Notes under the pieces: model-generated
What the model saw: the letters and a program-made list of their open reading frames with translations, nothing else
What the model was told of the DNA's origin: nothing
Database searches by the model: none
Position numbers and translations under genes: made by a program
Shown: positions 7,072 through 37,990 of the stretch, one piece after another
Layout of the letters: every line of letters starts with the position of its first letter
Position numbering within the stretch: the stretch's first letter is position 1
Sequence record: PQ433351.1
Reading direction: 5' to 3' (one strand)
Length of the DNA: 44,261 bases
Origin: Escherichia phage vB_Ec-G9

Positions 7072-7875
7072 ATGGCACGTAATTTTGATTTTGGCGCAGA
7101 GGTCACTAAGTCAGAAGGTAAAGTATTTAAGAACCCAGAAGTGGGCGACCATGAAGCTGTAATCTCTGGAATCATTCATGTTGGTTCCTTCCAAGATATC
7201 TTTAAGAAAGGCAATACCACTGAAGTTAAGAAGCCAGCAAACTTTGTTCTTGTTAAGATTGTCCTGATGGGTGATGATGACAAGAACGAAGATGATTCAC
7301 GCATGGAACAGTGGATGGCTGTGCCTCTGAAGTCAGGTGATAAAGCTACTCTGACTAAGTTCCTGAATGCAGTTGATCCTAAAGAACTGCTGGGTGGCTT
7401 CGATGACTTCATCGGTGAATGCCTGACTGCAACTATGGTTGGCTCTGGCGACAAGAATGATGATGGTACTTTCAAGTATGTTAACTGGAAAGGCTTTGGC
7501 GGTATGCCTGATAAGTTGAAGAAGCTTGTACTGGCTCAGGTAGAAGAGGAAGGTCTGTCTATGACAGGTCATATCACCTTCGACAAGCTGACCAAAGAAA
7601 TCCTTGATGACATCCCAGCTAACTTGGTACGTCAATACTTCCTGAACGAGACACCTCGTGGTAAGAACCTGTCTGTTGCTGGCTCTCACGTAGAAGCTAT
7701 TATCAAAGCTGCTCGTGAAGAAGACCCAGAGTGGAAGAAAGCCAAGAAGAAAGATGACGAGGATGCTACTCCAGCTAATCGTAAGTCTCTGGATACTGGC
7801 GAGTCTGTTCCACAGGAAGTACCTGAAGCAGAAGATACTCCTGCACCGGAGATGGATGAGGACGCGGAATATTAA
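7072..7875 (+). CDS. abundant protein with acidic C-terminal tail; candidate ssDNA-binding protein (267 aa)
   Basis: RBS AGGAG; highly biased (expression-type) codon usage; C-terminus EMDEDAEY; position and tail resemble T7 gp2.5 logic; sequence similarity not established. Confidence 0.6.
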   Translation: MARNFDFGAEVTKSEGKVFKNPEVGDHEAVISGIIHVGSFQDIFKKGNTTEVKKPANFVLVKIVLMGDDDKNEDDSRMEQWMAVPLKSGDKATLTKFLNAVDPKELLGGFDDFIGECLTATMVGSGDKNDDGTFKYVNWKGFGGMPDKLKKLVLAQVEEEGLSMTGHITFDKLTKEILDDIPANLVRQYFLNETPRGKNLSVAGSHVEAIIKAAREEDPEWKKAKKKDDEDATPANRKSLDTGESVPQEVPEAEDTPAPEMDEDAEY

Positions 7876-7884
7876 GGAGAAAGG

Positions 7885-8103
7885 ATGAAAGTACAAATCG
7901 TAACCCTGCACTGCAAGAAAGGTATCACAACGCTCGGAGGTGGCACTTTCCACTCTTTCTCCGAAGGGGAGATTTATGCTGACCTGCACTACATCTGGCG
8001 CGACGGACAGCACGTGGTGAACTACAGCGACCCAGCTACGGGGAAACGCCACGGCGTATCGCTTCCGGCGCATGACATTGCTCAGGTGAACACAGTTTTA
8101 TAA
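7885..8103 (+). CDS. hypothetical protein (72 aa)
   Basis: RBS AAGGAG upstream. Confidence 0.55.
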   Translation: MKVQIVTLHCKKGITTLGGGTFHSFSEGEIYADLHYIWRDGQHVVNYSDPATGKRHGVSLPAHDIAQVNTVL

Positions 8104-8104
8104 A

Positions 8105-8120
8105 GTCTCACATGTGAGAC
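8105..8120. repeat. 16-bp perfect palindrome GTCTCACATGTGAGAC (copy 3)
   Basis: Exact; lies 15 bp upstream of promoter at 8136. Confidence 0.9.
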
Positions 8121-8135
8121 AAATCGGTGTCCGGT

Positions 8136-8159
8136 ATTTACTGGACACTATAGAAGAGA
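8136..8159 (+). promoter_or_regulatory. phage RNAP promoter
   Basis: TATTTACTGGACACTATAGAAGAG. Confidence 0.8.
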
Positions 8160-8207
8160 AGAATTTTAATCGGCGATAATGCCACAACTAACAAAGGAGA
8201 ATTTAAT

Positions 8208-8585
8208 ATGTTCAAGATTGAAACTATCGTAAACCGTGTTGTTAAAGGTGCTGCTCTGGTATCCGTTGAGTCTTTCATTATCGTCGATGAAGCTGATCAA
8301 CTGGTAGCTGGTACTAAGGCTTACGATACCCGTGAAGAAGCTCAGGCTAAGATTGACAGCATGGGTAACTTCGCTGCTGGTCTGGAGTTCGCTCGCGCTT
8401 GCTTCCCTGAGCAGGCTGACAAAGCTCAGATTGGTAAGGCTAATATCGTAGCTGAATATCTGGATTGGATTGCTGCTGGTAAGCCGGTGAAAGAAGTTAA
8501 GTCTGCTGAAGAAGCTGAAGCTCAGGCGGCAGAAGAAGTAGCTGCACCGGTAGATGCTCCGGTAAGCGAAGAAGAAGAGTTTTAA
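8208..8585 (+). CDS. highly expressed small protein with acidic C-terminal tail ending EEEEF (125 aa)
   Basis: Strong RBS AAAGGAGA; codon usage like capsid gene; followed directly by terminator; function unknown. Confidence 0.7.
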   Translation: MFKIETIVNRVVKGAALVSVESFIIVDEADQLVAGTKAYDTREEAQAKIDSMGNFAAGLEFARACFPEQADKAQIGKANIVAEYLDWIAAGKPVKEVKSAEEAEAQAAEEVAAPVDAPVSEEEEF

Positions 8586-8587
8586 TT

Positions 8588-8625
8588 GATGCCCTGTCTG
8601 CCTTAGTGTAGGCAGGGTCTTTTGC
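8588..8625 (+). terminator. intrinsic terminator (conserved twin of 18032)
   Basis: ATGCCCTGTCTGCC-TTAGTGTA-GGCAGGG followed by TCTTTTG; near-identical element after capsid gene. Confidence 0.65.
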
Positions 8626-8649
8626 GTAATAGTTATTGGAGAATGAATT

Positions 8650-8955
8650 ATGCCGACTATTAAATCTCGTTTAGTAGCAGACTATGTGTATGGTCGTGAC
8701 TTAAAGTTAATGCAAGATTACTTTAAAGTAATCATCCTGCTGGATGGAGAAGTGTTTCACACTAAAACATTCACCCTTCCTGAATTGTTTGATTTAGGTT
8801 ATTGGGGTTATACATATCAGGCCATAGCAGACAAGGTGCTACTCAGTGTATTAGAGGAGTGGCCTACATGCGACCAAACTTCGACTTCGGAGCTACAGTA
8901 TCGGAAGACAATAATCTCATCTTGTGGCCAACTGAAGGTAATCGAATCGCTTTAA
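8650..8955 (+). CDS. hypothetical ORF overlapping exonuclease start (101 aa)
   Basis: ATG 8650 with upstream GGAG; overlaps next gene by 88 nt in another frame, so uncertain. Confidence 0.3.
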   Translation: MPTIKSRLVADYVYGRDLKLMQDYFKVIILLDGEVFHTKTFTLPELFDLGYWGYTYQAIADKVLLSVLEEWPTCDQTSTSELQYRKTIISSCGQLKVIESL

Positions 8956-9896
8956 TAGATGCTGATATGTTACCTTACATCGTCGGGTATACAATCAGTG
9001 ACATGACTTATGTACGAGCTACAACTCGTGTTAAGTCAGGACAAGTCCCATCAATCAAAGATACCCCTGAGTGTAAGCAAGCGTGTGACCGTGTGAACTC
9101 CTTGCTTAACTCTTGGGTGTATGCAGCAGAGTGTGATGCTGCTAAGTTATTCATGACGAAATCAGAAGCTAACTTCCGTGTCCGCCTAGCATTCACCAAG
9201 CCTTACAAGGGTCAACGTAAGACCGAGAAGCCTCCATTCTTCTATGAATTGCGAGAGCATCTCTTAGAGGTTCATGGTGCAATCTTGGCAGATGGAGAAG
9301 AGGCTGATGACCTCATGAGCATTGCACAATGGGACAGCCACCGCCGCTTCCAGCAAGATACAGGTAACGAGTTCCCTATCGGTAGTCCAGAGCATAAAGC
9401 ATTCTCTGATACTTGCATCGTTTCCTTAGATAAGGATTTGATGATTGTTCCCGGTTGGCATCTTCAGCCGGGTCAAGAGAAGAAATGGGTAGAGCCTATG
9501 GGTTGGCTTGAGTTACGCCGTAAGGCTAATGGTCAGGTTAAAGACCTTAAAGGTGCTGGCCTCATGTTTCATTATGCACAGATGATTATCGGTGATGATA
9601 TTGATAACTATGCTGGCATACCTGGACGTGGTGCTAGATACGCCTATGATCTTCTCAAAGATTGTAAGACAGAGAAAGAGTTGTACATGGCAGTGCTTGG
9701 TGCTTACAAGGCTAAGTTCGGACATGGACAAGTTAAGATTAAGAATTACCGAGGGGGTTATCGTATCGGCAAGGCTTTTGACCTGATGCTCGAATGTGGT
9801 CGCCTAGCTCACATGGCAAGATTCAAAGGTGATATATGGCGAGCCGATAAGAACCCAATCTTGTGGGGAGATGATGCGGAATGGTTAGCAAATTAA
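8868..9896 (+). CDS. 5'-3' exonuclease (T7 gp6-like, FEN family)
   Basis: N-terminal IALIDADML and YKGQRK, EEADD motifs parallel T7 gp6 ILVMDGDWL / YKANRK / EGDD; start at ATG 8868 (RBS GAGGAG). Confidence 0.8.
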   Translation: MRPNFDFGATVSEDNNLILWPTEGNRIALIDADMLPYIVGYTISDMTYVRATTRVKSGQVPSIKDTPECKQACDRVNSLLNSWVYAAECDAAKLFMTKSEANFRVRLAFTKPYKGQRKTEKPPFFYELREHLLEVHGAILADGEEADDLMSIAQWDSHRRFQQDTGNEFPIGSPEHKAFSDTCIVSLDKDLMIVPGWHLQPGQEKKWVEPMGWLELRRKANGQVKDLKGAGLMFHYAQMIIGDDIDNYAGIPGRGARYAYDLLKDCKTEKELYMAVLGAYKAKFGHGQVKIKNYRGGYRIGKAFDLMLECGRLAHMARFKGDIWRADKNPILWGDDAEWLAN

Positions 9897-10282
9897 AATC
9901 ATCTGAGGTAGCAGCTTATAAGAGGGAATTGCTAGAGAAGCAAGGATGGAAGTGCCCCCTATGTGGCGGCAGTCTCAAGGCTGTTACTCCTATAAACCGT
10001 GTACTTGACCATGACCATGAGACAGGATTCTGCCGTGCTGTTGTATGCCGAGGCTGCAATGGTGCAGAAGGAAAGATTAAGGGTGTTATCTCTGGTTACG
10101 GTAAGGCGGGTAACAACCGTTACTTCCAGCTTCAATGGTTAGAGCGACTATATGAATACTGGAAGTTACATAGTACGCCTCAGACAGATAAGTTATATCA
10201 CAAACATCAAACGGAGGCAGAGAAGCGCGAGGCTAAGAACCGTAAGGCACGCCTTGCTTATGCAAGAAAGAAAGGAGTATGA
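9881..10282 (+). CDS. endonuclease VII-type Holliday junction resolvase
   Basis: CPLCG...DHDHETG...CRGCN zinc/HxH motif pattern typical of T4 endo VII family. Confidence 0.75.
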   Translation: MVSKLKSSEVAAYKRELLEKQGWKCPLCGGSLKAVTPINRVLDHDHETGFCRAVVCRGCNGAEGKIKGVISGYGKAGNNRYFQLQWLERLYEYWKLHSTPQTDKLYHKHQTEAEKREAKNRKARLAYARKKGV

Positions 10283-10283
10283 T

Positions 10284-10715
10284 ATGGACTGTATAGACCA
10301 CGGGCATTATAAGTGCTTAAATCAATTAGGTTACTACAGGTCGTGGCATAAACCTAGTAAGAAGTTGCAATTACTTCATCGCGTGGTCTATGCAGAGCAC
10401 CACGGCCTTTCTATAGAGGATATAAAGGATGTAGTGATTAGACACACTTGTGATAATGCAAGATGTATAAACCCTGCACACTTAATATCTGGTACACAGC
10501 AGGACAACATTCAAGACATGATAGGTAGAGGCAGGCGTGCTAGCTTTGCAGGCGAAAAGAATAATCGCGCTAAACTGACTTGGGATGTTGTACGTGCTAT
10601 CAGGGCAACATATGTTGCTAATAAGAAAGGTGAGAGGTTACGACTAGCTAAGCTATATAATGTCTCACCTGCTACCATTAGTGATATTGTAAGCGGGAGG
10701 GTTTGGAAAGAATAA
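10284..10715 (+). CDS. HNH homing endonuclease
   Basis: LHRVVYAEHHG ... VIRHTCDNARCINPAHL (HNH_3-like) plus C-terminal DNA-binding tail; RBS AAAGGAG. Confidence 0.8.
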   Translation: MDCIDHGHYKCLNQLGYYRSWHKPSKKLQLLHRVVYAEHHGLSIEDIKDVVIRHTCDNARCINPAHLISGTQQDNIQDMIGRGRRASFAGEKNNRAKLTWDVVRAIRATYVANKKGERLRLAKLYNVSPATISDIVSGRVWKE

Positions 10716-11722
10716 TGGGTAAGATTAGAAACTTGTTTACTAATAAGGAGGTAGAAGAAGCAGTTGAAAGTGCAAAGCGCGATGATGGCACTATCAACTA
10801 TCGCCTGATGGCGTCTATTCTCTCAGATAACACACATGGGACTACAGTTACAAGGCAGCTTGCAAAGTATTGGGCCAAACAGTTTGAAAAGCGGAAGAAG
10901 AATGGCGAGGCGTATGAAACCTTGGCTATTGCGAACCGTGCTATCAAAGAAGAACGTAAGCTCAGGACTCCTGACCGCTACGAGGATTTGGCTATTGTAC
11001 CATTGCCTGACTCGCCTCATCGAAGTGTATTGGTAATACCTGACACCCATGCACCTTATGAGCATCCAGATACATTAGAGTTTCTGGCAGCGGTGGCAGC
11101 ACGTTACCGTCCAGACACTGTAATTCATCTTGGTGATGAGGCGGACAAGCACGCACTTTCATTCCATACGTCAGATCCTAATCTGGATTCTGCTGGTATG
11201 GAGTTAGAGAAGGCTCGTATCTTCATGCGTAAATTACATAAGATGTTCCCTGTAATGCGCATCTGCCACTCTAATCATGGCTCCTTACATTTCCGTAAGG
11301 CCAGTGCTCATGGCATCCCTGTGCAATACCTGCGCACCTACCGTGAAGTCTTCTTCCCGCAGGGAGGTGGCGACCAGTGGGATTGGCAGCATACGCACGT
11401 CCTTGAGTTGCCGAATGGTGAACAAGTGGCATTCAAGCATCAACCTGCTGGCTCTGTCCTAGCAGATGCAGCGCATGAGCGTATGAACCTTGTGTGTGGT
11501 CACTTGCACGGTAAGATGTCTGTGGAGTACGCACGTAATACACATGAACAGTATTGGGCTGTGCAAGGTGGCTGCTTAATTGATGAGTCATCCCGTGCAT
11601 TTGCCTATGGGCGTGAGTCTAAATACAAGCCAGCATTAGGTTGTGTGGTTATTCTGGAGGGTGTACCTCATATTGTCCCGATGCAAACCAATAGCGACAA
11701 CCGTTGGATTGGCAAGATTTAG
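10715..11722 (+). CDS. calcineurin-like metallophosphoesterase
   Basis: VIPDTHAPY ... HLGDEADKH ... CGHLHG: DxH / GDxxD / GHxH metallophosphatase motifs. Confidence 0.75.
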   Translation: MGKIRNLFTNKEVEEAVESAKRDDGTINYRLMASILSDNTHGTTVTRQLAKYWAKQFEKRKKNGEAYETLAIANRAIKEERKLRTPDRYEDLAIVPLPDSPHRSVLVIPDTHAPYEHPDTLEFLAAVAARYRPDTVIHLGDEADKHALSFHTSDPNLDSAGMELEKARIFMRKLHKMFPVMRICHSNHGSLHFRKASAHGIPVQYLRTYREVFFPQGGGDQWDWQHTHVLELPNGEQVAFKHQPAGSVLADAAHERMNLVCGHLHGKMSVEYARNTHEQYWAVQGGCLIDESSRAFAYGRESKYKPALGCVVILEGVPHIVPMQTNSDNRWIGKI

Positions 11723-11742
11723 TTGACACTATAGAACAAAGG
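11717..11742 (+). promoter_or_regulatory. phage RNAP promoter (variant -12 to -10 GTT)
   Basis: GATTTAGTTGACACTATAGAACAAAG. Confidence 0.7.
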
Positions 11743-11822
11743 GCTAGGTAAGACTTTATCGGCTGGTGTATCCAAATGATATTGCACTAGCCCTTGATTG
11801 TATAGTGAATGGAGGATTCAAT

Positions 11823-12326
11823 ATGTCACACTATGAATGTAAGAAGTGTCATAAGCGTTATGATTACTGTACTTGTGGTCAAGAGAAAACATCTTTTAAA
11901 GTTGGAGACAAGGTATTTCGTAATGAAAAAGATTCGATTCCTTGGAATCAATACTGCAAAGAAGCTGGTATTGACCCTGATAGCCCTGTAACCATAGATG
12001 ATATTGATGGCATTAACTTGTGCTTTCGTGAGGTGAGGGGTACAGGTTGGGATTCCAAAAAATTCAAACTTGCATCTGATAAGTTAGACAACAATATGGT
12101 AACTCAGCCTAAGCACTACGAGTTCTTTGATGGCGTAGAAGCAATTACTATCATCGCCCGTAGTATGACCGAGAAGCAATTCGCGGGGTATTGCATGGGT
12201 AATGCTTTGAAGTATCGTCTGCGTGCAGGTAAGAAGTTCAATACTGAAGAAGACCTGAAGAAAGCAGACTACTACAAAGAGTTATTCCAGAAGCATCGTC
12301 ACGAATGTATTGATGAGGATATTTGA
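11823..12326 (+). CDS. hypothetical protein with N-terminal Cys-rich zinc-ribbon-like segment (167 aa)
   Basis: RBS GGAGG before ATG 11823; CKKCHKRYDYCTC; conserved-looking C-terminal block GYCMGNALKYRLRAGKK. Confidence 0.6.
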   Translation: MSHYECKKCHKRYDYCTCGQEKTSFKVGDKVFRNEKDSIPWNQYCKEAGIDPDSPVTIDDIDGINLCFREVRGTGWDSKKFKLASDKLDNNMVTQPKHYEFFDGVEAITIIARSMTEKQFAGYCMGNALKYRLRAGKKFNTEEDLKKADYYKELFQKHRHECIDEDI

Positions 12327-12327
12327 T

Positions 12328-13275
12328 ATGAATATCTTTGAGTTCCTAGGTCTTCCAGAAGACCACCGCAATCACCCATTCATGCTGGTGAAGCATCGCG
12401 GTGAAGTTCCTGAGAAGAAATTAACTTTTCCATGTTATGCACAGGTGAAACGAGATGGAATATTCAGTGCTGTTGTGGTGCGCAATGATGGTGCTGTTGC
12501 CATCTTTGGTCGTACTGGTAAGAAGCTCGCAAATGTTGAATCCTTGGAAAAGACATTTAGTTTATTTCCTGTCGGGTTGTATCTTGGTGAGTTGCAATCT
12601 ATGGCTGTTGATGTTTATCTTGAAGCTCTGTCAGGAGTGGTAAACCCTAATCGTACAGAGCCACTTGACTTCATAGGCCAGCAGATTAAAGACAACCTGT
12701 ATATCGACTTCTTCGATATGTTAACTATTAAGGCATTCCATGATGGATTCACTGATGTTTCTTATCTCAAACGTTACGATGCTTTACATCGTCGCATCGG
12801 CGCTCATCTTAGCGGGTACAACGCTATCCTTCCTATTACTCCTTGCCATAATGAGCGAGAAGTTGAAGCGTTTGCGCAAGAGCAGATAGACGCAGGCCGA
12901 GAGGGTGCTGTATTCAAACTGGACTGCGATTATGAAGCAGGCCACAAAGGTTATCGTCAGACTAAAGAAGTCCGTAAGGTAACTTATGACCTTACTTGTA
13001 TTGGCTTTGAAGAAGGTAAAGGTAAGTACAAAGGTAAGGTAGCTAACCTCATTTTCAAATGGAAAGGAGGCAAGACAATCAAAGCTATGTTAGGTAAAGG
13101 GTGGACTCATGCAGATGCAGAACAGATGTTCCACGACATTAAACATGGTGGACGATTGAATGTCATTGGTAAAATCTTTGAAGTCAAAGGTCTTCAGGAT
13201 TCAAGCAAGGGCAACATTCGTCTGCCCAAAGCGGGAGAATTAAGACATGACAAAGATGAACCAGATTTCTTTTGA
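12328..13275 (+). CDS. ATP-dependent DNA ligase
   Basis: Motif I KRDG (AQVKRDGIFS), EGAVFK motif; size and position fit phage ligase. Confidence 0.8.
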   Translation: MNIFEFLGLPEDHRNHPFMLVKHRGEVPEKKLTFPCYAQVKRDGIFSAVVVRNDGAVAIFGRTGKKLANVESLEKTFSLFPVGLYLGELQSMAVDVYLEALSGVVNPNRTEPLDFIGQQIKDNLYIDFFDMLTIKAFHDGFTDVSYLKRYDALHRRIGAHLSGYNAILPITPCHNEREVEAFAQEQIDAGREGAVFKLDCDYEAGHKGYRQTKEVRKVTYDLTCIGFEEGKGKYKGKVANLIFKWKGGKTIKAMLGKGWTHADAEQMFHDIKHGGRLNVIGKIFEVKGLQDSSKGNIRLPKAGELRHDKDEPDFF

Positions 13276-13462
13276 TAGCATGAAGGCAACTCGTGCAGTT
13301 GAGGTAGCAGAAGCTATCTTTGAAACTTTATCCTGTGGCATGGAAGTGCCATATACTTTACTTGCTGATGCAGAAGAACTTGGTCTTTCTGTAGAAGCTA
13401 TCCAAGAGAAGGTTGACGAATTATATGGTACAGACGAAGAAGAAACCGACGATTTCATTTGA
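13247..13462 (+). CDS. small acidic protein (71 aa)
   Basis: RBS GGAGA; acidic C-terminus TDEEETDDFI. Confidence 0.5.
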   Translation: MTKMNQISFDSMKATRAVEVAEAIFETLSCGMEVPYTLLADAEELGLSVEAIQEKVDELYGTDEEETDDFI

Positions 13463-13466
13463 AGGA

Positions 13467-13595
13467 ATGGAGATGCTTGAGATGATTCTCAAGCCTTCTT
13501 CTCCGAAGGTGACTAAGACTCATGAAGAGTTAATCGTTGATGAAGTGAAGCGTTACATCATGGATTGTGTCAGAGCACAACTGGTGGTCCAATGA
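13467..13595 (+). CDS. hypothetical small protein (42 aa)
   Basis: ATG 13467 with GAAGGA upstream; stop overlaps next start. Confidence 0.3.
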   Translation: MEMLEMILKPSSPKVTKTHEELIVDEVKRYIMDCVRAQLVVQ

Positions 13596-14053
13596 TACGT
13601 CCAGCTTCCTTCCTAGATATTCCTGAGATTATAAACCTTGGGAATAAATATGTGGAAGAGGAAGTCAAGGTAGTGGCCCATCACTCAGCCTCATGGAATG
13701 TAGAACAAAGCGCGCATAACCTTTGCGCATCTCTTAGTAGAGAAGATTTATTCCTATGGGTTGCTGTAGATGAAGGGCGGATTGTAGGGTTCCTGTGGGC
13801 TGGCTATCACGAGTTGGGCCCTTGGACACCTGTAAGGGTTGCCTCTGACATTCTCTTTTATATTATACCAGAGAAGCGAGGAACCCTACTTGGTATGCGT
13901 CTCATCAAAGCCCTAAAGCAATGGGCTAGTGATAATGAATGCTCTGAGGTTCGCCTGTCTATCGCCTCTGGTATTAATGAAGAACGTGTCGGACGTATGT
14001 ATAAGCGACTTGGCTTTGAACCGTTTGGCACTGTGTACAACCTGAAGTTCTAA
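13592..14053 (+). CDS. GNAT-family N-acetyltransferase
   Basis: GNAT-like core IVGFLWAG ... EKRGTLLGMRLIKAL ... YKRLGFEPFG. Confidence 0.65.
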   Translation: MIRPASFLDIPEIINLGNKYVEEEVKVVAHHSASWNVEQSAHNLCASLSREDLFLWVAVDEGRIVGFLWAGYHELGPWTPVRVASDILFYIIPEKRGTLLGMRLIKALKQWASDNECSEVRLSIASGINEERVGRMYKRLGFEPFGTVYNLKF

Positions 14054-14062
14054 GGAGATAAT

Positions 14063-14272
14063 ATGGGTGTTGTAAAGAAAGCATTTAAGGCTATCGGTCT
14101 TGCTCAAGATGCACCACGTATTGAAGCCAAAGTCCCAGCACAGCAGCTTGAGCGTAAGCCTGAGACTGAAGCTGAAGATATTCAAATTGGTGCAGGTGGT
14201 GATGATGCGACTGCATCTGCAAAAGGTAAGCGCGGCCTTGTCCGTCCGGTAGCTTCTAGCTTGAAGGTGTAA
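14063..14272 (+). CDS. hypothetical protein (69 aa), possibly virion-associated
   Basis: Strong RBS TAAGGAG; immediately upstream of portal. Confidence 0.5.
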   Translation: MGVVKKAFKAIGLAQDAPRIEAKVPAQQLERKPETEAEDIQIGAGGDDATASAKGKRGLVRPVASSLKV

Positions 14273-14273
14273 T

Positions 14274-15824
14274 ATGAAACAGAGCACAGATTTGGAGTAT
14301 GGAGGTAAGCGGTCTAAGATACCTAAGCTATGGGAGAAGTTCTCCACTAAACGTAGCTCTTTCCTTGATAGGGCGAAGCATTACTCCAAATTAACCTTGC
14401 CCTATCTGATGAATGACAAAGGTGATAACGAGACTTCGCAGAATGGATGGCAAGGTGTAGGTGCTCAGGCAACTAATCATCTAGCCAACAAGCTAGCGCA
14501 AGTACTATTCCCTGCACAGCGTTCCTTCTTCCGTGTAGACTTAACTGCACAAGGTGAGAAGGTTCTTAATCAGCGTGGCCTGAAGAAGACAGAGCTAGCT
14601 ACCATCTTCGCTCAAGTGGAAACACGGGCAATGAAAGAGTTAGAGCAACGTCAATTCCGGCCTGCTGTAGTGGAAGCATTCAAGCATCTTATTGTTGCTG
14701 GTAGCTGTATGCTATACAAGCCGAGCAAAGGTGCAATCAGTGCTATCCCAATGCATCACTATGTAGTTAACCGTGATACCAATGGCGACCTGTTAGACAT
14801 TATCTTACTGCAAGAGAAAGCCTTACGCACCTTTGACCCAGCTACACGTGCTGTAGTAGAGGTTGGCCTGAAAGGTAAGAAGTGCAAGGAAGATGACAGC
14901 GTTAAGCTGTACACACATGCTAAGTATCTTGGTGATGGATTTTGGGAACTCAAGCAATCTGCTGATGATATCCCTGTGGGTAAGGTGAGTAAAATCAAAT
15001 CAGAAAAGCTACCTTTCATCCCATTAACTTGGAAGCGAAGCTATGGTGAGGATTGGGGTCGCCCTCTTGCAGAGGATTACTCCGGTGATTTATTCGTTAT
15101 CCAATTCTTATCTGAAGCGGTTGCCCGTGGTGCTGCGCTGATGGCAGATATCAAGTACCTGATTCGTCCGGGTGCTCAAACTGATGTTGACCACTTTGTT
15201 AACTCTGGCACTGGTGAGGTTGTCACTGGTGTAGAAGAAGACATCCATATTGTACAGTTAGGTAAGTACGCAGACCTCACACCTATTAGCGCGGTTCTAG
15301 AGGTATACACTCGCCGTATCGGTGTTGTCTTCATGATGGAGACAATGACACGCCGTGACGCCGAACGTGTTACTGCTGTAGAAATCCAGCGAGATGCGTT
15401 AGAGATTGAGCAGAACATGGGTGGTGTATACTCCCTCTTTGCTACTACTATGCAATCGCCAGTAGCGATGTGGGGTCTGCTGGAGGCAGGGGAGTCCTTC
15501 ACTAGTGACTTAGTGGACCCTGTGATTATCACAGGTATTGAAGCTTTAGGACGCATGGCTGAGTTGGATAAACTGGCTAACTTTGCTCAGTATATGTCAC
15601 TGCCATTACAATGGCCTGAGCCTGTCCTAGCTGCTGTGAAATGGCCTGACTATATGGATTGGGTGCGTGGTCAAATCTCTGCTGAACTGCCGTTCCTTAA
15701 ATCGGCTGAAGAGATGGCACAAGAACAGGAAGCGCAGATGCAAGCACAGCAAGCACAGATGCTTGAAGAAGGTGTGGCTAAGGCCGTGCCGGGTGTAATT
15801 CAACAAGAACTTAAGGAGGCGTAA
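14274..15824 (+). CDS. portal (head-tail connector) protein
   Basis: Size, position before scaffold/capsid and sequence parallels to T7 gp8 (e.g. WQGVGAQATNHLANKL vs WQAVGARGLNNLASKL). Confidence 0.9.
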   Translation: MKQSTDLEYGGKRSKIPKLWEKFSTKRSSFLDRAKHYSKLTLPYLMNDKGDNETSQNGWQGVGAQATNHLANKLAQVLFPAQRSFFRVDLTAQGEKVLNQRGLKKTELATIFAQVETRAMKELEQRQFRPAVVEAFKHLIVAGSCMLYKPSKGAISAIPMHHYVVNRDTNGDLLDIILLQEKALRTFDPATRAVVEVGLKGKKCKEDDSVKLYTHAKYLGDGFWELKQSADDIPVGKVSKIKSEKLPFIPLTWKRSYGEDWGRPLAEDYSGDLFVIQFLSEAVARGAALMADIKYLIRPGAQTDVDHFVNSGTGEVVTGVEEDIHIVQLGKYADLTPISAVLEVYTRRIGVVFMMETMTRRDAERVTAVEIQRDALEIEQNMGGVYSLFATTMQSPVAMWGLLEAGESFTSDLVDPVIITGIEALGRMAELDKLANFAQYMSLPLQWPEPVLAAVKWPDYMDWVRGQISAELPFLKSAEEMAQEQEAQMQAQQAQMLEEGVAKAVPGVIQQELKEA

Positions 15825-16744
15825 TGTCTTTCTCATTTACTGAACCGTCAACCACTCACCCTACTGCTGAAGAGGGTCCGGTAGAAACCAAGGAGGTAAC
15901 AACTGATGCTGCTACTACTGATGCTCCTGCTGACGCTGGCACTGCTGTACAAGATGACAATGCTGGTGCACAACCTACTGAAGACACCGGAGGAGAAGCT
16001 TCTGGACAGCCTTCAGAAAAAGGAGACAATGGCGGAGAGAATGGTGAACCTAAGCCAGATGATACCGCGACCGACACTGAGGAAGTGCAATACTTCTTCG
16101 GAGAACATGAAGTAACAGTAGACATCCCACAGGATGTAACTGACAGCCTTAAAGAGAAAGGCATTGATGCCAAGCAGGTTGCCAAGGAACTCTATTCCAA
16201 AGGTGGCAAGTTTGAACTGTCAGATGCAACCAAGCAGAAATTGTATGATGCTTTTGGCAAGTTTGCGGTAGATGCTTACCTGTCAGGTCTTAAGGCTCAA
16301 AATGAAGCCTTCTTCCTGAAAGAAGCCAACGCAGCTAAAGAGTTGGAAGCAGCTAACACCCAACGCTTCTCTGATGTTTCTAAGGAAATTGGTGGCGAAG
16401 AAGGTTGGTCCCGTCTTGAGGAGTGGGCGCTTGAAACTCTATCCGATGACGAACTCACGGCATTCAATGCGGTGATGGAGTCTGGCAACCAATACCTTCA
16501 GCAATATGCTGTGCGTGAACTAGAAAGCCGCCGGAAATCTGCACAGGGTGATGACAAGCCAAACTTGATTGAACCCTCTGCACCTGCTGCTGCGTCTGAA
16601 GACAACGGCCCACTATCGCGTGAGCAGTACCTGCGTGAGATGATGACCCTTAGCTCTCGTTTCGGTACAGACAAGAAAGCGGCTGCTGAGTATCAGGCTA
16701 AACTGGATGCTCGCCGTCGTGCGGGGATGGCTCGCGGACTCTAA
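15824..16744 (+). CDS. scaffolding protein
   Basis: Acidic, low-complexity, between portal and capsid. Confidence 0.75.
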   Translation: MSFSFTEPSTTHPTAEEGPVETKEVTTDAATTDAPADAGTAVQDDNAGAQPTEDTGGEASGQPSEKGDNGGENGEPKPDDTATDTEEVQYFFGEHEVTVDIPQDVTDSLKEKGIDAKQVAKELYSKGGKFELSDATKQKLYDAFGKFAVDAYLSGLKAQNEAFFLKEANAAKELEAANTQRFSDVSKEIGGEEGWSRLEEWALETLSDDELTAFNAVMESGNQYLQQYAVRELESRRKSAQGDDKPNLIEPSAPAAASEDNGPLSREQYLREMMTLSSRFGTDKKAAAEYQAKLDARRRAGMARGL

Positions 16745-16748
16745 TCAG

Positions 16749-16772
16749 TATTTACTGGACACTATAGAAGGG
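16749..16772 (+). promoter_or_regulatory. phage RNAP promoter upstream of capsid gene
   Basis: TATTTACTGGACACTATAGAAGGG. Confidence 0.85.
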
Positions 16773-16820
16773 AGAAATGTCTCCCTAAAATATCACTTTG
16801 ATTTATAAGGAGGTTTATTA

Positions 16821-18026
16821 ATGTCTACACCGAATACTCTGACCAACGTTGCAGTCTCCGCTTCCGGTGAGGTAGACAGCCTGCTCATTGAGAAATTCAA
16901 TGGTAAGGTGAATGAGCAGTACCTGAAAGGTGAGAACATCATGAGCTACTTTGATGTTCAGACTGTAACTGGTACTAATACTGTAAGCAACAAATACTTG
17001 GGTGAAACCGAGTTGCAGGTTCTAGCACCGGGCCAGTCTCCGGCTGCAACCTCTACTCAGGCAGATAAAAACCAACTGGTAATTGACGCCACTGTTATTG
17101 CTCGTAACACTGTTGCTCACCTGCATGACGTACAGGGTGATATTGATAGCCTGAAGCCGAAGCTTGCTACTAACCAAGCGAAGCAGCTGAAGAAGATGGA
17201 AGATGAAATGCTGATTCAGCAGATGCTGCTGGGCGGTATTGCTAACACTCAGGCTAAGCGTACTAATCCGCGTGTTAAAGGCCATGGCTTCTCTGTCAAC
17301 GTAGAAGTTGCAGAAAGTGAAGCACTGGTCAACCCGCAGTATGTAATGGCGGCTGTAGAGTTTGCTCTGGAGCAGCAGCTTGAGCAGGAAGTAGACATCT
17401 CTGATGTAGCTATCCTGATGCCGTGGCGCTACTTCAACGTACTGCGTGATGCAGACCGTATCGTTGACAAGAGCTACACCATTAGCCAGTCTGGTGCAAC
17501 CATTCAGGGTTTTGTTCTGTCTTCTTACAACTGCCCTGTTATCCCGTCTAACCGCTTCCCTAAATTCTCTGAGGGTCAGAAACATCACCTGCTGTCAAAT
17601 GAAGACAACGGTTATCGTTATGACCCGACTGCAGAAATGAATGGCGCTATCGCGGTACTGTTCACAGCTGACGCTCTTCTTGTTGGTCGTTCAATTGATG
17701 TAACCGGTGATATCTTCTATGAGAAGAAAGAGAAGACCTATTACATTGACACCTTTATGTCTGAAGGTGCAATCCCTGACCGTTGGGAGGCAGTGTCTGT
17801 AGTTACCACCAAGCGAGAGACAAATGGCACGCCTACCACTACTGCAACTCAGGCCGCACAGCATACTCAGGTTCTGAACCGTGCACAGCGTAAAGCAGTG
17901 TATGTCAAGAATGCTGCTCAGGTTGCTGCCGCTGCTTCTAGCTTGTCTGCTGAAGACTTGGTTGCTGCTGTTCGTGCTGTAATGGCTAATGACATTAAGC
18001 CGACTGCAATGAAACCTGCTGAGTAA
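16821..18026 (+). CDS. major capsid protein
   Basis: Strong RBS AAGGAGG, expression-type codon usage, promoter upstream and terminator downstream, position. Confidence 0.9.
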   Translation: MSTPNTLTNVAVSASGEVDSLLIEKFNGKVNEQYLKGENIMSYFDVQTVTGTNTVSNKYLGETELQVLAPGQSPAATSTQADKNQLVIDATVIARNTVAHLHDVQGDIDSLKPKLATNQAKQLKKMEDEMLIQQMLLGGIANTQAKRTNPRVKGHGFSVNVEVAESEALVNPQYVMAAVEFALEQQLEQEVDISDVAILMPWRYFNVLRDADRIVDKSYTISQSGATIQGFVLSSYNCPVIPSNRFPKFSEGQKHHLLSNEDNGYRYDPTAEMNGAIAVLFTADALLVGRSIDVTGDIFYEKKEKTYYIDTFMSEGAIPDRWEAVSVVTTKRETNGTPTTTATQAAQHTQVLNRAQRKAVYVKNAAQVAAAASSLSAEDLVAAVRAVMANDIKPTAMKPAE

Positions 18027-18031
18027 TACCT

Positions 18032-18068
18032 ATGCCCTATCTACCTTGCGTAGGTAGGGTTCTTTTTG
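18032..18068 (+). terminator. intrinsic terminator after capsid gene
   Basis: ATGCCCTATCTACC-TTGCGTA-GGTAGGG followed by TTCTTTTTG. Confidence 0.7.
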
Positions 18069-18080
18069 TTAGGAGGGTTC

Positions 18081-18818
18081 ATGCCTGTAATTAAACAAAC
18101 CAGTAAAGTAGGACACATGATGGAAGATGTGGCCTTCCAGATTATTGATAGTAAACTTGAAGCGGTCAACTTATGTATGCGAGCCATTGGTCGTGAGGGT
18201 GTGGATTCTCTCGACTCCGGTGACTTGGATGCAGAAGATGCAAGCAAGATGATTGATATTGTGTCTCAGCGCTTCCAGTATAACAAAGGCGGTGGCTGGT
18301 GGTTCAACCGTGAACCTAACTGGCAAATTGCACCAGACACAAATGGTGAGGTTAACCTACCCAATAATTGCCTTGCTGTGTTGCAATGTTATGCTTTGGG
18401 TGAGAAGAAAGCCCCGATGACTATGCGCGCGGGTAAATTGTACTCTACTTGGAGTCACACCTTTGATATGCGCAAGCATGTTAATGCAAATGGTATGCTG
18501 CGACTTACCTTACTTACACTACTCCCTTATGAGCACCTCCCTACAAGTGTAATGCAAGCAATTGCATATCAAGCTGCGGCAGAGTTTATTGTATCTAAGG
18601 ATGCAGATAAAACTAAACTGGCTACAGCACAGCAGATTGCTACCCAGCTTCTTATGGATGTGCAGTCTGAACAAATGTCGCAGAAGAGGTTGAACATGTT
18701 AGTACATAACCCGACGCAGCGACAGTTTGGCATCATGGCTGGTGGCTCTCAGAATGTACCTGCTTACTCTCATTCACCTTATGATAGTTGGGCGCTCCGT
18801 CCGTGGGAGGATCGTTAA
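18081..18818 (+). CDS. tail tubular protein A
   Basis: RBS AGGAGGG; position; WWFN motif region resembles T7 gp11. Confidence 0.8.
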   Translation: MPVIKQTSKVGHMMEDVAFQIIDSKLEAVNLCMRAIGREGVDSLDSGDLDAEDASKMIDIVSQRFQYNKGGGWWFNREPNWQIAPDTNGEVNLPNNCLAVLQCYALGEKKAPMTMRAGKLYSTWSHTFDMRKHVNANGMLRLTLLTLLPYEHLPTSVMQAIAYQAAAEFIVSKDADKTKLATAQQIATQLLMDVQSEQMSQKRLNMLVHNPTQRQFGIMAGGSQNVPAYSHSPYDSWALRPWEDR

Positions 18819-21220
18819 TGGAAGTACAAGGTTCATTAGGTAGACAAATCCAAGGTATTAGCCAGCAGCCGCCAGCGGTACGCTTGGATGGTCAGTGCAC
18901 AGCCATGATTAATATGATACCAGATGTAGTGAATGGCACTCAATCACGCATGGGTACAACTCATATTGCAAAGATACTTGATGCGGGGACTGATGACATG
19001 GCTACTCATCATTATCGCAGAGGTGATGGTGATGAAGAGTATTTCTTCACGTTGAAGAAAGGACAAGTTCCTGAGATATTCGATAAGTATGGGCGCAAAT
19101 GTAATGTGACTTCACAAGATGCACCTATGGCTTACTTGGCTGAGGTGATAAACCCAAGAGAAGATGTGCAATTTATGACGATAGCTGATGTTACTTTCAT
19201 GCTTAACCGCAGGAAGGTGGTTAAAGCTAGTAATAGAAAGTCACCCAAAGTTGGAAACAAAGCCATTGTGTTTTGTGCATATGGTCAATACGGTACATCT
19301 TATTCCATTATAATTAATGGTGCTAACGCTGCTAGCTTTAAAACACCAGATGGTGGAAGGGCAGATCATGTTGAACAAATTCGAACTGAACGTATCACTT
19401 CTGAATTGTACTCTAAGTTGCAGCAATGGAGCGGTGTGAGTGACTATGAAATACAAAGAGAAGGTACTAGTATATTTATCGAGAGACGGGATGGTGCTAG
19501 CTTTACAATAACAACCACCGATGGTGCAAAAGGTAAGGATCTGGTGGCTATCAAGAATAGGGTTAGTTCTACTGACCTTCTTCCTTCTCGTGCGCCTGAA
19601 GGGTATAAAGTACAAGTGGGGCCTACTGGAAGTAAACCCGATGCCCGTTACTGGTTACAAGCGGAACCTAAAGAGGGAAACCTTGTATCTTGGCAAGAAA
19701 CAGTAGCTGCTGATGTATTACTTGGATTTGATAAAGGTACAATGCCTTACATCATTGAACGTACAGGTATCATTGACGGCATAGCTCAATTTAAGATTAG
19801 GCAAGGCGATTGGGAAGACCGCAAGGTAGGGGATGACTTGACTAACCCCATGCCATCCTTTATTGATGAAGAAGTTCCTCAGACAATCGGTGGGATGTTC
19901 ATGGTGCAGAACCGATTGTGCTTTACAGCAGGTGAAGCTGTCATTGCATCACGCACTTCCTACTTCTTTGATTTCTTCCGTTACACTGTTATCTCAGCTT
20001 TGGCTACCGACCCATTCGATATCTTCTCAGATGCGAGTGAAGTTTACCAGTTGAAACATGCAGTGACTTTAGATGGTGCTACTGTACTGTTCTCTGATAA
20101 ATCTCAATTTATCTTACCGGGAGATAAACCGCTGGAGAAGGCTAATGCCCTACTTAAGCCTGTAACTACTTTTGAAGTGAACAACAAAGTTAAGCCAGTT
20201 GCCACTGGCGAGTCTGTGATGTTAGCTACAAACGATGGTGCATATTCTGGTGTACGAGAGTTTTATACAGATTCTTATAGTGACACTAAAAAAGCTCAGG
20301 CAATCACGAGTCATGTGAATAAGCTAATCGAAGGTAATATTATAGGCATGGAAGCTAGCACCAATGTTAACCGTTTGCTTGTCACTACAGATAAGTACCG
20401 CAACATAATCTACTGCTATGATTGGTTATGGCAAGGAACAGACCGTGTACAATCTGCATGGCATGTATGGGAGTGGCCTTTGGACACAAAGGTACGAGGT
20501 ATGTTTTATTCTGGCGAATTACTTTACCTACTCCTTGAGAGAGGCAATGGTGTCTATCTGGAGAAGATGGATATGGGTGATGCATTAACCTATGGTTTAA
20601 ATGATCGCATCCGAATGGACAGACAGGCAGAGTTAATCTTCCAGCATTTCAAAGCAGAAGATGAATGGGTATCTGAACCGCTCCCTTGGGTTCCTACTAA
20701 CCCAGAACTTTTAGATTGCATCTTAATCGAGGGTTGGGATTCATATATTGGCGGCTCTTTCTTATTCAAGTACAACCATAGTGACAATACTTTGTCTACA
20801 ACCTTTGATATGTATGATGACAGCCATGTAAAAGCGAAGGTTATTGTTGGGCAAATTTACCCTCAAGAATTTGAACCTACACCTGTAGTTATCAGAGACA
20901 GGCAAGACCGTGTATCTTATATTGATGTACCTGTTGTGGGATTAGTTCACCTGAATCTTGATATGTATCCTGATTTCTCCGTGGAGGTTAAGAATGTGAA
21001 GAGTGGTAAAGTACGCAAGGTGCTAGCGTCAAACCGTATAGGTGGTGCTCTCAACAATACAGTAGGTTATGTTGAACCAAGAGAGGGTGTCTTCAGATTC
21101 CCACTGAGGGCTAAGAGTACGGATGCTGTTTATCGTATTATTGTAGAATCACCTCACACATTCCAGCTCCGCGATATTGAGTGGGAAGGGAGCTACAATC
21201 CAACCAAAAGGAGGGTCTAA
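18818..21220 (+). CDS. tail tubular protein B
   Basis: N-terminal GISQQP motif as in T7 gp12; size about 800 aa. Confidence 0.9.
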   Translation: MEVQGSLGRQIQGISQQPPAVRLDGQCTAMINMIPDVVNGTQSRMGTTHIAKILDAGTDDMATHHYRRGDGDEEYFFTLKKGQVPEIFDKYGRKCNVTSQDAPMAYLAEVINPREDVQFMTIADVTFMLNRRKVVKASNRKSPKVGNKAIVFCAYGQYGTSYSIIINGANAASFKTPDGGRADHVEQIRTERITSELYSKLQQWSGVSDYEIQREGTSIFIERRDGASFTITTTDGAKGKDLVAIKNRVSSTDLLPSRAPEGYKVQVGPTGSKPDARYWLQAEPKEGNLVSWQETVAADVLLGFDKGTMPYIIERTGIIDGIAQFKIRQGDWEDRKVGDDLTNPMPSFIDEEVPQTIGGMFMVQNRLCFTAGEAVIASRTSYFFDFFRYTVISALATDPFDIFSDASEVYQLKHAVTLDGATVLFSDKSQFILPGDKPLEKANALLKPVTTFEVNNKVKPVATGESVMLATNDGAYSGVREFYTDSYSDTKKAQAITSHVNKLIEGNIIGMEASTNVNRLLVTTDKYRNIIYCYDWLWQGTDRVQSAWHVWEWPLDTKVRGMFYSGELLYLLLERGNGVYLEKMDMGDALTYGLNDRIRMDRQAELIFQHFKAEDEWVSEPLPWVPTNPELLDCILIEGWDSYIGGSFLFKYNHSDNTLSTTFDMYDDSHVKAKVIVGQIYPQEFEPTPVVIRDRQDRVSYIDVPVVGLVHLNLDMYPDFSVEVKNVKSGKVRKVLASNRIGGALNNTVGYVEPREGVFRFPLRAKSTDAVYRIIVESPHTFQLRDIEWEGSYNPTKRRV

Positions 21221-21948
21221 TGGCTATAGGTTCTGCCGTTATGGCTGGTATGTCTTCTATTGGTAGTATGTTTACAGGCAGCGGTGCAGCAGCCGCTGCT
21301 GGAGGTTCTGCCGCAGCAGCAGGTGGTGGAGGCTTACTAGGTTCCGTGGGAGGTTTCCTAAGTGGTTCCACTGGTGGTTTCTCCAATGCAGGGCTTCTTG
21401 GTGCTGGCCTTCAAGGTTTAGGCTTAATTGGTAATCTCTTTGGCGGCAGTGATGAAGCCAAGGCAATGAAGAAAGCACAAGAAGAACAGTGGCGGCAGCA
21501 ACTTATTGCTACACAAGAAGCATACAAAACAGTAGCAGATGCAGAACGCTCTGCTGCTAAACAGTATCATGCAGATGCAATCAGTAATCAGGCTTCACTG
21601 CTACAGCAAAGAGCACAGGTTGCATTACTTGCTGGTGCTACTGGTACTGGTGGTAACTCTGTGTCTTCTATGCTGAATGACTTAGCAGCAGAAGGCGGAA
21701 GGAACCAGAGTACAATTATCGATAACTATGAGAATCAGAAGATTAACTTCACCAACCAGCTTAAGTCCATCCAACGTGGTGGTCAGATGCAGATGCGTGA
21801 GTTTAAGAAACCTTCTGCCGTGAGCACCTTGGTGCAAGGTATCCCGAGTCTGGCATCTGCCTATGTAACAGGTAGTAAGTCCGGCATGGCTTTAGGTAAA
21901 GCTTTAACTGATTCTCGTACATATTCATCTGGAACAAGAGGTATTTAA
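21220..21948 (+). CDS. internal virion protein A (Gly/Ala-rich N-terminus)
   Basis: Position after tail tube B; Gly-rich low-complexity N-terminus. Confidence 0.7.
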   Translation: MAIGSAVMAGMSSIGSMFTGSGAAAAAGGSAAAAGGGGLLGSVGGFLSGSTGGFSNAGLLGAGLQGLGLIGNLFGGSDEAKAMKKAQEEQWRQQLIATQEAYKTVADAERSAAKQYHADAISNQASLLQQRAQVALLAGATGTGGNSVSSMLNDLAAEGGRNQSTIIDNYENQKINFTNQLKSIQRGGQMQMREFKKPSAVSTLVQGIPSLASAYVTGSKSGMALGKALTDSRTYSSGTRGI

Positions 21949-24896: not shown

Positions 24897-24913
24897 TACC
24901 TAACTCAAGGCTT

Positions 24914-24929
24914 GTCTCACATGTGAGAC
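24914..24929. repeat. 16-bp perfect palindrome GTCTCACATGTGAGAC (copy 4)
   Basis: Exact; flanks GCTTG...CAGGT; between the two large internal virion protein genes. Confidence 0.9.
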
Positions 24930-24960
24930 AGGTCTTTATGATAGGCACTATGGAGGATTT

Positions 24961-27900: not shown

Positions 27901-28158
27901 GGCCTAGGTGTTCTACCTTCTGAGTTAGTACAATCCCGTTATGAGGCTGGATTTCAGACTAAGGGTTTGATAGACCAAATACCACTAGTAGGTGTTGGTC
28001 AAGATGCATATCGTTTAGCAGCTTCTATAACTAAATACGCAGAGGGTGATACAGAAGGTGTAGATGTGGCACGTAGGGCTTTACGCTTAGTGCCTCTAGC
28101 TAATGTAATAGGAATCCAGAACGCATTGCGTTATGGCTTAGATGAACTGGAGGATTAA
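24961..28158 (+). CDS. internal virion protein C (ejection/core protein, 1065 aa)
   Basis: Size and position equivalent to T7 gp16; RBS GGAGG. Confidence 0.8.
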   Translation: MEQDIKTNWAGYVQSTPEPFSIEAAPVLAPTIRQRNELQEQVLEAKADADILGAVGAAFQNEWLAFGGKRWYDRATADFTPQPDFEIQPEQREALRFKYGTDMMQTITEGVRSEDELNFRIQNADEDLERNKRIAQAGWVGSVATIGAAVLDPVGWVASIPTGGAAKVGLVGRAVRGAIAAGVSNAAIESVLVQGDMTRDLDDIMVALGSGMAMGGVIGAVARGRATKLSEQGDDRAASVVRSADAGDRYVRAVADDSIGAMRVKGAEVLTEGVFDISSKGEDLLKTLQREGNAIDMTPRRWAGTMSALGTVVHSSKDASIRGLGARLFESPQGLGAQKASASLMQNTNLNRLKSADMNRFNDGFDLWLKENNINPVAGHTNSHYVQQYNEKVWEAVRIGMDESTPKSIRMAAEGQQAMYREALALRKRSGEAGFENIKADDKYMPDIFDTMKARRQFDRIGKDIDKEDIIELFSRAYQNGARKIPKEAADEIARAQVNRVADATLTGKLSFEKAMSGQTKAEYEAIMRKAGFSDEEIEKMVEALDNKETRDNISNRAKMSLGLDVTQEYNGIRMRDFMNTNVEELTDNYMKEAAGGAALARQGFSTYQAALNAIDLVERNARNAAKDSKASLALDEEIRQMREGLRLIMGKSIDADPQAISTKMMRRGRDITGVLRLGQMGFAQLGELANFMGEFGIAATTIALGKQFRFTSKALRSGDGFFRDKNLAEVERMVGYIGEDNWLTTKGARPDEFGDVTTVRGMMAHFDQSMNSIRRAQTNLSLFRMAQGSLERMTNRQIALSFIDHLEGKKIIPQKKLEELGLTQEVMTNLQKHYDANSKGSGLLGFDTMPYAMGETLANAIRRKSGLIIQRNFIGDEGIWMNKALGKTFAQLKSFSLVSGEKQFGRGIRHDKIGLAKKTAYGFALGSIVYAAKAYVNSIGREDQDEYLEEKLSPKGLAFGAMGMMSTTAVFSLGGDFLGGLGVLPSELVQSRYEAGFQTKGLIDQIPLVGVGQDAYRLAASITKYAEGDTEGVDVARRALRLVPLANVIGIQNALRYGLDELED

Positions 28159-29120: not shown

Positions 29121-29129
29121 GGAGGTGGG

Positions 29130-29324
29130 ATGATTAACTCCGAACTGGTAGATAGTGGTGTGAAGCTTGCGCCACCTGCACTCGTATCAGGTGGGTACTT
29201 CCTCGGTATCAGTTGGAATAATTGGGTGTTAATAGCAACATTCATTTATACCGTGTTGCAAATTGGGGACTGGTTTTATAATAAGTTCAAGATTTGGAGG
29301 GAGAAGCGTGAGCGTACACAATAA
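29130..29324 (+). CDS. class II holin (T7 gp17.5-like)
   Basis: ELVDSGVKLAPPALVSGGYFLGIS...IYTVLQIG closely parallels T7 holin ELIKAAPIVGTGVADVSARLFFGLS...AYTVVQIG. Confidence 0.8.
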   Translation: MINSELVDSGVKLAPPALVSGGYFLGISWNNWVLIATFIYTVLQIGDWFYNKFKIWREKRERTQ

Positions 29325-37980: not shown

Positions 37981-37990
37981 TGATGGATAG

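Follow-up and report, generated by a model that had tools for sequence, protein, structure and literature searches.

Why does the genome of Escherichia phage vB_Ec-G9 (PQ433351.1) carry two look-alike hairpin sequences some 9.5 kb apart, one just after the gene that starts at position 8208 (gene 8208) and the other just after the major capsid gene? The window analysed here (44,261 bases) is that whole genome, circularly permuted relative to the GenBank records, and every gene in it lies on the + strand. According to the original prediction, the two sequences, hereafter T1 and T2, are terminators with the same architecture and about 80% identity that bring about matched attenuation after the two most expressed genes. 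Our analysis indicates that this observation was correct and that its interpretation was essentially right: T1 and T2 are very probably class I intrinsic terminators of the phage single-subunit RNA polymerase, which close one-gene cassettes, are leaky and have been kept alike as a pair. The elements are the following:

8591-8618, + strand: T1 hairpin, an 11-bp stem (GCCCTGTCTGC / GTAGGCAGGGT) with the loop CTTAGT
8619-8624, + strand: T1 U-tract, CTTTTG, from sequence reading and the terminator scan
18034-18060, + strand: T2 hairpin, an 11-bp stem (GCCCTATCTAC / GTAGGTAGGGT) with the loop CTTGC; ortholog of the SP6 terminator t5
18061-18069, + strand: T2 U-tract, TCTTTTTGT, read from the sequence
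18071-18076: AGGAGG ribosome-binding site of the tail tubular protein A gene, directly after the T2 U-tract, with the ATG at 18081

The two strings originally singled out occur once each, exactly, on the + strand (8589-8624 and 18032-18068), and neither was present in any of 100 shuffles. Their alignment shares 31 of 38 columns (82%), which bears out the architecture and identity first claimed; as shown below, about 66-67% is the baseline of the phage group. The likeness ends at the edges of the elements, the flanks on either side being unrelated. Both hairpins are intergenic and co-directional with transcription, starting 6 nucleotides (nt; T1) and 8 nt (T2) past the preceding stop codon. The whole 53-54-nt stretches fold with energies of -18.3 kcal/mol for T1 (z -3.5) and -17.7 kcal/mol for T2 (z -2.0), and the hairpins alone with -17.8 and -15.9 kcal/mol, respectively. 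T1 and T2 were the top two terminator-like sites of the window in the terminator scan, and a family covariance model (R1) scored them at 50.1 and 53.9 bits, respectively, with the next best site at 11 bits; run with its filters off, this model gave only T1 and T2 and no third copy of the module in the window. Between the two stems there are three differences, all of them transitions that preserve pairing and together amount to one G-C to A-U and one G.U to A-U change. On the minus strand folding is far weaker (-9.8 and -12.2 kcal/mol), as A.C mismatches take the place of the G.U pairs there, and no A-run was found upstream; T1 and T2 are therefore one-directional and do not have the make-up of bidirectional terminators. 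At the gathering score, no Rfam family matched anywhere in the window. Both elements combine what characterizes a class I terminator, namely a G+C-rich stem-loop, an adjoining U-tract, an intergenic site below a phage promoter and compensatory changes in the stem.

Termination at the hairpin sequence of T2 has in fact been measured in a relative. The SP6 template of Song et al. 2024 (PMC11347151) combined the P8 promoter with the class I terminator t5, and their oligonucleotide SP6-B, which contains ...CCTATGCCCTATCTACCTTGCGTAGGTAGGGTTCTTTTGTTTAGGAGGATTCATGCC..., is the SP6 post-capsid terminator (SP6 locus L011), with a hairpin identical to that of T2. In that study t5 had a termination efficiency of 85% with SP6 RNA polymerase in vitro, almost entirely at one site, and it was also tested as a class I terminator with T7 RNA polymerase (PMC11347151). 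Besides the hairpin itself (GCCCTATCTACCTTGCGTAGGTAGGGT), t5, located after the major capsid gene 32, shares with T2 its post-capsid position, the downstream ribosome-binding site and the tail-tube gene; it differs in the U-tract, which is one T longer in the window (TTCTTTTTG) than in SP6 (TTCTTTTG). The promoter specificity region also differs (ACTGGACAC in the window, AGGTGACAC in SP6), so the polymerase of the window is a K1-5/K1E-type enzyme. For T1, the SP6 counterpart is a predicted terminator after gene 20, 100% identical and with the same gene family ahead and an exonuclease gene behind, and the record of Proteus phage PM 93 carries a "putative rho-independent terminator" after its gp20 homologue, at the place of T1. 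In UAB_Phi78 and SP6, rho-independent terminators were described at matching positions, behind the capsid gene and behind genes of unknown function (PMC4837284), and seven SP6 RNA polymerase terminators have been counted in the SP6 genome (PMC11347151). The elements are, in other words, already known SP6-type terminators, and the T2 ortholog has already been tested. They add little to genome annotation, and a hairpin with the sequence of T2 has already served in single-molecule termination studies; what remains new is confined to the cross-lineage matching of T1 and T2.

About 90 related loci were retrieved, and about 20 of them were scanned for terminators within 10 kb of the capsid gene; for extra lineages, annotated phage records were more useful, and a metagenome scan gave almost nothing new. 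In most of the ~20 loci, including all those with a capsid identity of at least 65%, the two strongest + strand terminators occupied the T1 and T2 positions, one 3' of the gene-8208 homologue and the other 3' of the capsid gene. In several distant relatives (capsid identity ~35-45%), only the capsid terminator was found within 10 kb. Across 16 distinct T1/T2 sequences, 97.1% of the alignment cells in the stem are paired and 6 of the 11 pairs are changed on both sides; none of 500 shuffles scored as high, and slid partners were paired in 33-59% of the cells. Distant lineages have wholly different stems at the same two positions. In close relatives, conservation is higher in the elements than in the coding DNA next to them (0.92 vs 0.80-0.87); the T1 hairpin is identical in SP6 and at least 14 other relatives, where the neighbouring gene is only 80-99% identical. 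In the K1-5-type relatives (L002, L005, L006, L010, L023 and L026), an insertion of ~53 nt (TGATAATAGCAGGTGT...CACCTCATCTA) lies between the stop codon of the gene-8208 homologue and T1, which remains unchanged despite it and sits ~55 nt past the stop. Together, the full class I anatomy, the covarying stem and the termination measured at SP6 t5 justify calling T1 and T2 terminators, as was originally proposed.

The role of these terminators can be read from the cassettes that they close, whose components are:

8136-8158, + strand: phage promoter of the gene-8208 cassette (ATTTACTGGACACTATAGAAGAG), 0 mismatches, joint top position weight matrix (PWM) score of 37.0 bits, inferred +1 at 8153
8208-8585, + strand: gene 8208, encoding a 125-amino-acid (aa) acidic protein of the SP6 gp20 / K1-5 gp18 family (phrog_4429), C-terminal SEEEEF
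16750-16772, + strand: phage promoter of the capsid cassette (ATTTACTGGACACTATAGAAGGG), 1 mismatch to the consensus, 35.9 bits, inferred +1 at 16767
16769-16786, + strand: capsid mRNA 5' stem-loop AGGGAGA-AAUG-UCUCCCU, present in both the minimum-free-energy and the centroid folds
16821-18026, + strand: major capsid protein gene, 401 aa (phrog_267 major head protein, E 7.5e-99)

In the window, 11 good sites match the phage promoter consensus, ATTTACTGGACACTATAGAAGAG, every one of them on the + strand. The two listed above are separated from their genes by 50 nt (gene 8208) and 49 nt (capsid gene), and the one of the capsid cassette corresponds to P8, the SP6 promoter employed in PMC11347151. 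Thus, each terminator closes a unit made of a promoter, a single gene and a terminator. In all lineages examined a lineage-specific promoter was found 52-92 nt upstream of both genes (52-63 nt for the gene-8208 homologue). A PWM scan revealed no promoter-like site above 12 bits at 8624-11717 or at 18068-29399 (real promoters score at least 27.8 bits), the next promoter-like sites being those at 11717 and 29399. Because no phage promoter follows within 3.1 kb of T1 or 11.3 kb of T2, both terminators must leak. Five genes lie between T1 and the next promoter, encoding a DNA repair protein, an exonuclease, endonuclease VII, a 187-aa product and a phosphoesterase, while T2 is followed by ~11 kb of tail-tube and internal virion genes devoid of a phage promoter of their own, the first one being that of the tail tubular protein A (identified by Pfam Tube and phrog_446).

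This organization around T2 resembles that of T-phi in T7, where the capsid gene, preceded by a strong promoter, ends at a leaky hairpin terminator and the tail genes beyond it rely on read-through. In T7, read-through at T-phi supplies genes 11-12. The resemblance extends to the leader, as the T7 phi10 leader has a 5' stem-loop similar to that of the capsid mRNA of the window. Relatives keep this stem-loop with compensatory changes (GGGAGG/CCTCCC in SP6, GGGAAT/ATTCCC in the Klebsiella type); the gene-8208 leader has no such 5' stem-loop. Only T2 shares the T-phi type of position, with a capsid gene under its own promoter ahead and promoterless tail genes behind, and neither T1 nor T2 shows sequence similarity to T-phi (0.49-0.56 by the identity measure used here). 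We know of no counterpart of T1 in the DNA-metabolism region of T7. Unlike T7, for which one class I terminator has been reported (PMC11347151), the SP6-like group has a second, look-alike terminator 9.5 kb upstream of the capsid one.

Regarding expression, gene 8208 ranked first and the capsid gene second among 41 genes in the fraction of host-optimal (E. coli) codons (0.762 and 0.709, respectively). Their codon bias and their own promoters, with 0 or 1 mismatch, suggest, albeit indirectly, that both genes are very highly expressed, and lend the same indirect support to the idea that the terminators follow the two most expressed genes.

How special is, then, the likeness between T1 and T2? 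As a measure of identity we used one global-alignment score, which for T1 vs T2 was 0.82. By this measure, any T1 compared with any T2 of the phage group gave ~66-67%, and simulated pairs matched in architecture (stem base, arm composition, lengths and tail) gave 0.68 +/- 0.06, with a probability of 0.012 of reaching at least 0.82. Scores of 0.48-0.67 were obtained when T1 and T2 were compared with terminators unrelated to them, namely his, lambda tR2, phi82 t500, T7 T-phi and the early terminator of the window itself. The excess of likeness over the generic architecture is real but modest. The comparison was extended to 14 lineages, contrasting by permutation the T1 and T2 of one genome with T1 and T2 of different genomes. 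For the whole element, the score was 0.751 within genomes and 0.656 between genomes (p ~1e-5), and for the interior, devoid of the stem base and tail, it was 0.642 and 0.514, respectively (p ~1.5e-5). The within-genome excess was also detected in the 9-nt tail (p = 0.0017) and in the last 6 nt of the 3' arm (p = 0.0004), and in five lineages the 9-nt tails of T1 and T2 were identical within the genome while differing between lineages.

Individual lineages illustrate different extents of sharing. Marinomonas phage CPG1g has AGTAACAACCCCAGAGGCCA(G/T)TAGGCTTTTGGGGTTTCTTTTGT at both sites, with 43 of 44 bases identical including 8 nt of the upstream flank, and Aeromonas Tola has TACCTAGCCC...GGGCTTTATTTTGCAGGAGGTTTNATG at both sites with both flanks shared. 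Klebsiella RCIP0089, Pectobacterium PP99 and an Edwardsiella phage carry GGGCTTATTTTTGTTRGAGG at both sites, the first two having in addition a common stem base, TGCCCC...GGGGC; Vibrio AS51 has GGGGCTTATTTTTGT at both sites and Pseudomonas Njord GGGCTTTATTTTGT. The sharing of flanks in some lineages would favour copying by gene conversion, and the sharing limited to stem base and tail in other lineages would fit a joint tuning to the cognate polymerase. In the Vectrevirus/Zindervirus (SP6/K1-5) clade, the T1s group with the T1s and the T2s with the T2s, so any homogenisation there is old. It is possible, although we regard it as rather doubtful, that the two sites form a co-evolving pair, alike within lineages and differing between them in stem base and U-tract, at times also in loop and flanks, through either recurrent gene conversion between ~40-nt repeats 9-10 kb apart or a polymerase-specific "termination code". 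We found no report of within-genome matching of two terminators in the accessible literature. The matching offers a testable hint of either homogenised short dispersed repeats or lineage-specific terminator preferences of phage polymerases; if a polymerase code exists, class I terminators would be partly polymerase-specific, as promoters are, and such lineage-specific preferences would be useful for the design of orthogonal expression systems.

A rival view is that the likeness is only what any two strong terminators of this type display, with the sites evolving independently and no module behind them. The group baseline of 0.66-0.67, the score of the architecture-matched random pairs, the site-wise grouping in the Vectrevirus/Zindervirus clade and the lineages without an excess all agree with it, but the probability of 0.012 for the window pair, the 14-lineage excess in both the whole element and the interior (p ~1e-5), the 43 of 44 bases shared with the flank in the Marinomonas phage and the five lineages with identical, lineage-specific 9-nt tails do not. 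This explanation is thus disfavoured and we consider it unlikely. The elements could instead be homology patches, 37-nt sequences conserved for recombination between co-infecting relatives at module boundaries and not for their strength in termination. The mosaic nature of the genome and the higher conservation of the elements with respect to the flanking genes would be expected of such patches; they leave unexplained, however, the covariation of the hairpins, the U-runs and the measured termination, which makes this explanation very improbable.

Even less probable is that the pyrimidine-rich 5' arms are alike as common targets of a trans-acting RNA, with purine-rich abortive transcripts of the phage promoters (GAAGGG, GAAGAG) binding to them and relieving termination at a late stage of infection, as has been suggested for T7 phi10 and T-phi. 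Lee and Kang 2010 (PMC2952870) reported that termination drops when G-rich abortive RNAs pair with the T-phi stem at its C+U-rich bottom-left. In line with this report, all 5' arms are C+U-rich, all the initial transcribed sequences are purine-only, and the CCCU found at the bottom-left of either stem can pair with AGGG. Nonetheless, the window allows only 4 contiguous pairs, no consistent longer complementarity was found across the lineages, the abortive products of SP6 polymerase reach only 6 nt (PMC2952870), and a CCC at the stem base is generic. The least probable of these explanations is that the hairpins serve mainly in RNA processing or stability, as RNase III-type or 3' protective elements, rather than as polymerase stops. 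Phages of the T7 group do use intergenic hairpins as RNase III sites, and a 3' hairpin would stabilise the mRNAs either way. However, 11-bp stems with no internal loop followed directly by a U-run are of terminator design and too short for a typical RNase III substrate, and the identical SP6 t5 hairpin stopped purified SP6 and T7 RNA polymerases in a nuclease-free system.

Returning to T1 and T2 as leaky class I terminators, the mechanism that we propose is as follows. Most polymerases starting at 8153 or 16767 would stop after one gene, and short mRNAs for the 125-aa acidic protein and for the capsid protein would pile up, presumably protected from 3' exonucleases by their 3' hairpins. The minority of polymerases that read through would provide the only phage-promoter-driven source of mRNA for the downstream genes. 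Read-through would set the dosage of these genes, adjusting abundant vs less abundant products as T-phi does for T7 gene 10 vs 11-12. T1 would terminate with an efficiency similar to that of T2, and the two sites would be kept alike by gene conversion or by joint adaptation to the polymerase of each lineage. The resulting map depicts a phage group that sets gene dosage with only two leaky stops. The idea of matched attenuation is plausible in these terms: the promoter-free 3.1 and 11.3 kb argue for a leak and the co-variation for a pair, whereas an equal efficiency of the two sites is what we infer.

Several points weigh against this reading. The 82% identity comes mostly from the generic architecture (GCCC/GGG stem base, pyrimidine-rich 5' arm, G-rich 3' arm and U-run). 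The 14 lineages share ancestry, which makes the permutation p-values approximate, and some of them display no special likeness between T1 and T2 (L031, 0.59; L028, 0.66). The cassette is not always monocistronic, as the Klebsiella FBKp16-like lineage has an extra promoter and gene between the gp20 homologue and T1. The termination data come from the SP6 ortholog of T2, and the efficiency of T1, hence the word "matched", is a prediction. Similarly, the expression levels were deduced from promoters and codon use, no transcriptome of an SP6-like phage having been found in the literature searched.

The product of gene 8208 (gp8208) deserves attention, since the map of promoters and terminators flags a conserved 125-aa acidic protein as probably made at capsid-like levels; these capsid-like expression signals are the most intriguing loose end of this analysis. 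The protein is conserved in all lineages (116-127 aa), is always encoded just before the exonuclease gene, and consists of a conserved domain of ~95 aa that a variable acidic linker joins to an invariant tail with E-x-F/Y at its end. Acidic tails ending in an aromatic residue dock T7 gp2.5 and gp4 onto DNA polymerase. Because of its acidic tail ending in F, gp8208 was considered as a single-stranded DNA-binding protein, and this candidate was rejected: the predicted structure combines a beta-hairpin with three helices and is no oligonucleotide-binding (OB) fold. The first structural model was poor, with a predicted local distance difference test (pLDDT) score of 60, and the second had a pLDDT of 72, with the folded domain at ~80-86. 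No match was found in PDB by fold or sequence, nor in Pfam or NCBIfam, and the resemblance to small DUF1508-type phage proteins is limited to the N-terminal ~55 aa. Similar acidic tails with an aromatic last residue are present in the primase-helicase (DDEQEF) and in the 267-aa product of 7072-7875 (EDAEY).

Downstream of T1, the read-through RNA may form a small hairpin at 8624-8653 (-6.7 kcal/mol, z -1.9), with the GGAG ribosome-binding site of gene 8650 in the loop and its AUG paired; this hairpin, for which the evidence is weak, may damp the translation of the first gene after T1.

With respect to the wider context, the T1 and capsid regions match many SP6/K1-5/K1E-like phages (Autographiviridae, Molineuxvirinae, genus Vectrevirus), with identities of up to 99% for the closest records and ~87% for SP6. 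The genome is a mosaic: the T1 region (8000-9000) is 99% identical to Vectrevirus T147P1 and VEc3, and the capsid region (17600-18500) shares 99% identity with phage P433.1 and only 88-92% with T147P1/VEc3. Other features of the window are:

37607-38412 (~37.6-38.4 kb): genome-end region free of open reading frames
40754-43381: RNA polymerase gene
43389-43412: third strong terminator, with a UUCG loop, AGGCCATTCCTTCGGGAGTGGCCT followed by TTCTTTT, directly after the RNA polymerase gene

This third terminator shows no sequence relationship to T1 or T2 and presumably serves the host polymerase as its early terminator; two phage promoters lie downstream of it, at 43473 and 43662.

A perfect 16-nt palindrome, GTCTCACATGTGAGAC, was found in 8 copies in the window at up to 2 mismatches, vs 0.23 expected, at 599, 2167, 3311, 8105, 24914, 38239, 43455 and 43641. 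The copies at 8105, 43455 and 43641 are located 15-30 nt upstream of phage promoters, and two copies lie within longer hairpins with weak T-runs (2160-2189 and 24908-24935). In relatives the palindrome is symmetrically replaced, by GTCCAACGCGTTGGAC in SP6 and GTCCAACACTGTTGGAC in PM93, and in Vibrio AS51 and Pseudomonas Njord it also occurs behind the capsid terminator. The palindrome may act as a hairpin or as the binding site of a dimer.

The genome-end region harbors 11 + strand copies of the heptamer CTTAGTG, out of 21 in the window vs 7.4 expected, an array that looks like a counterpart of the short repeat arrays adjoining the T7 terminal repeats. The T1 loop contains this heptamer (8602-8608), which we treated as a coincidence and not as a functional copy, given 10 copies outside the array vs 7.4 expected.

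Finally, the class II pause/termination signals of T7-type polymerases (HATCTGTT plus a T-run) resemble T1 and T2 in serving the same type of polymerase and in loosely similar 5'-arm strings (TGTCTGCC and TATCTACC), and differ from them in that no hairpin is needed. T1 and T2 were discarded as class II terminators, none of the four HATCTGTT matches in the window lying within either of them. The only match on the + strand (37913-37920, TATCTGTT) falls in the genome-end region and, by analogy, may correspond to the concatemer-junction pause site of T7.

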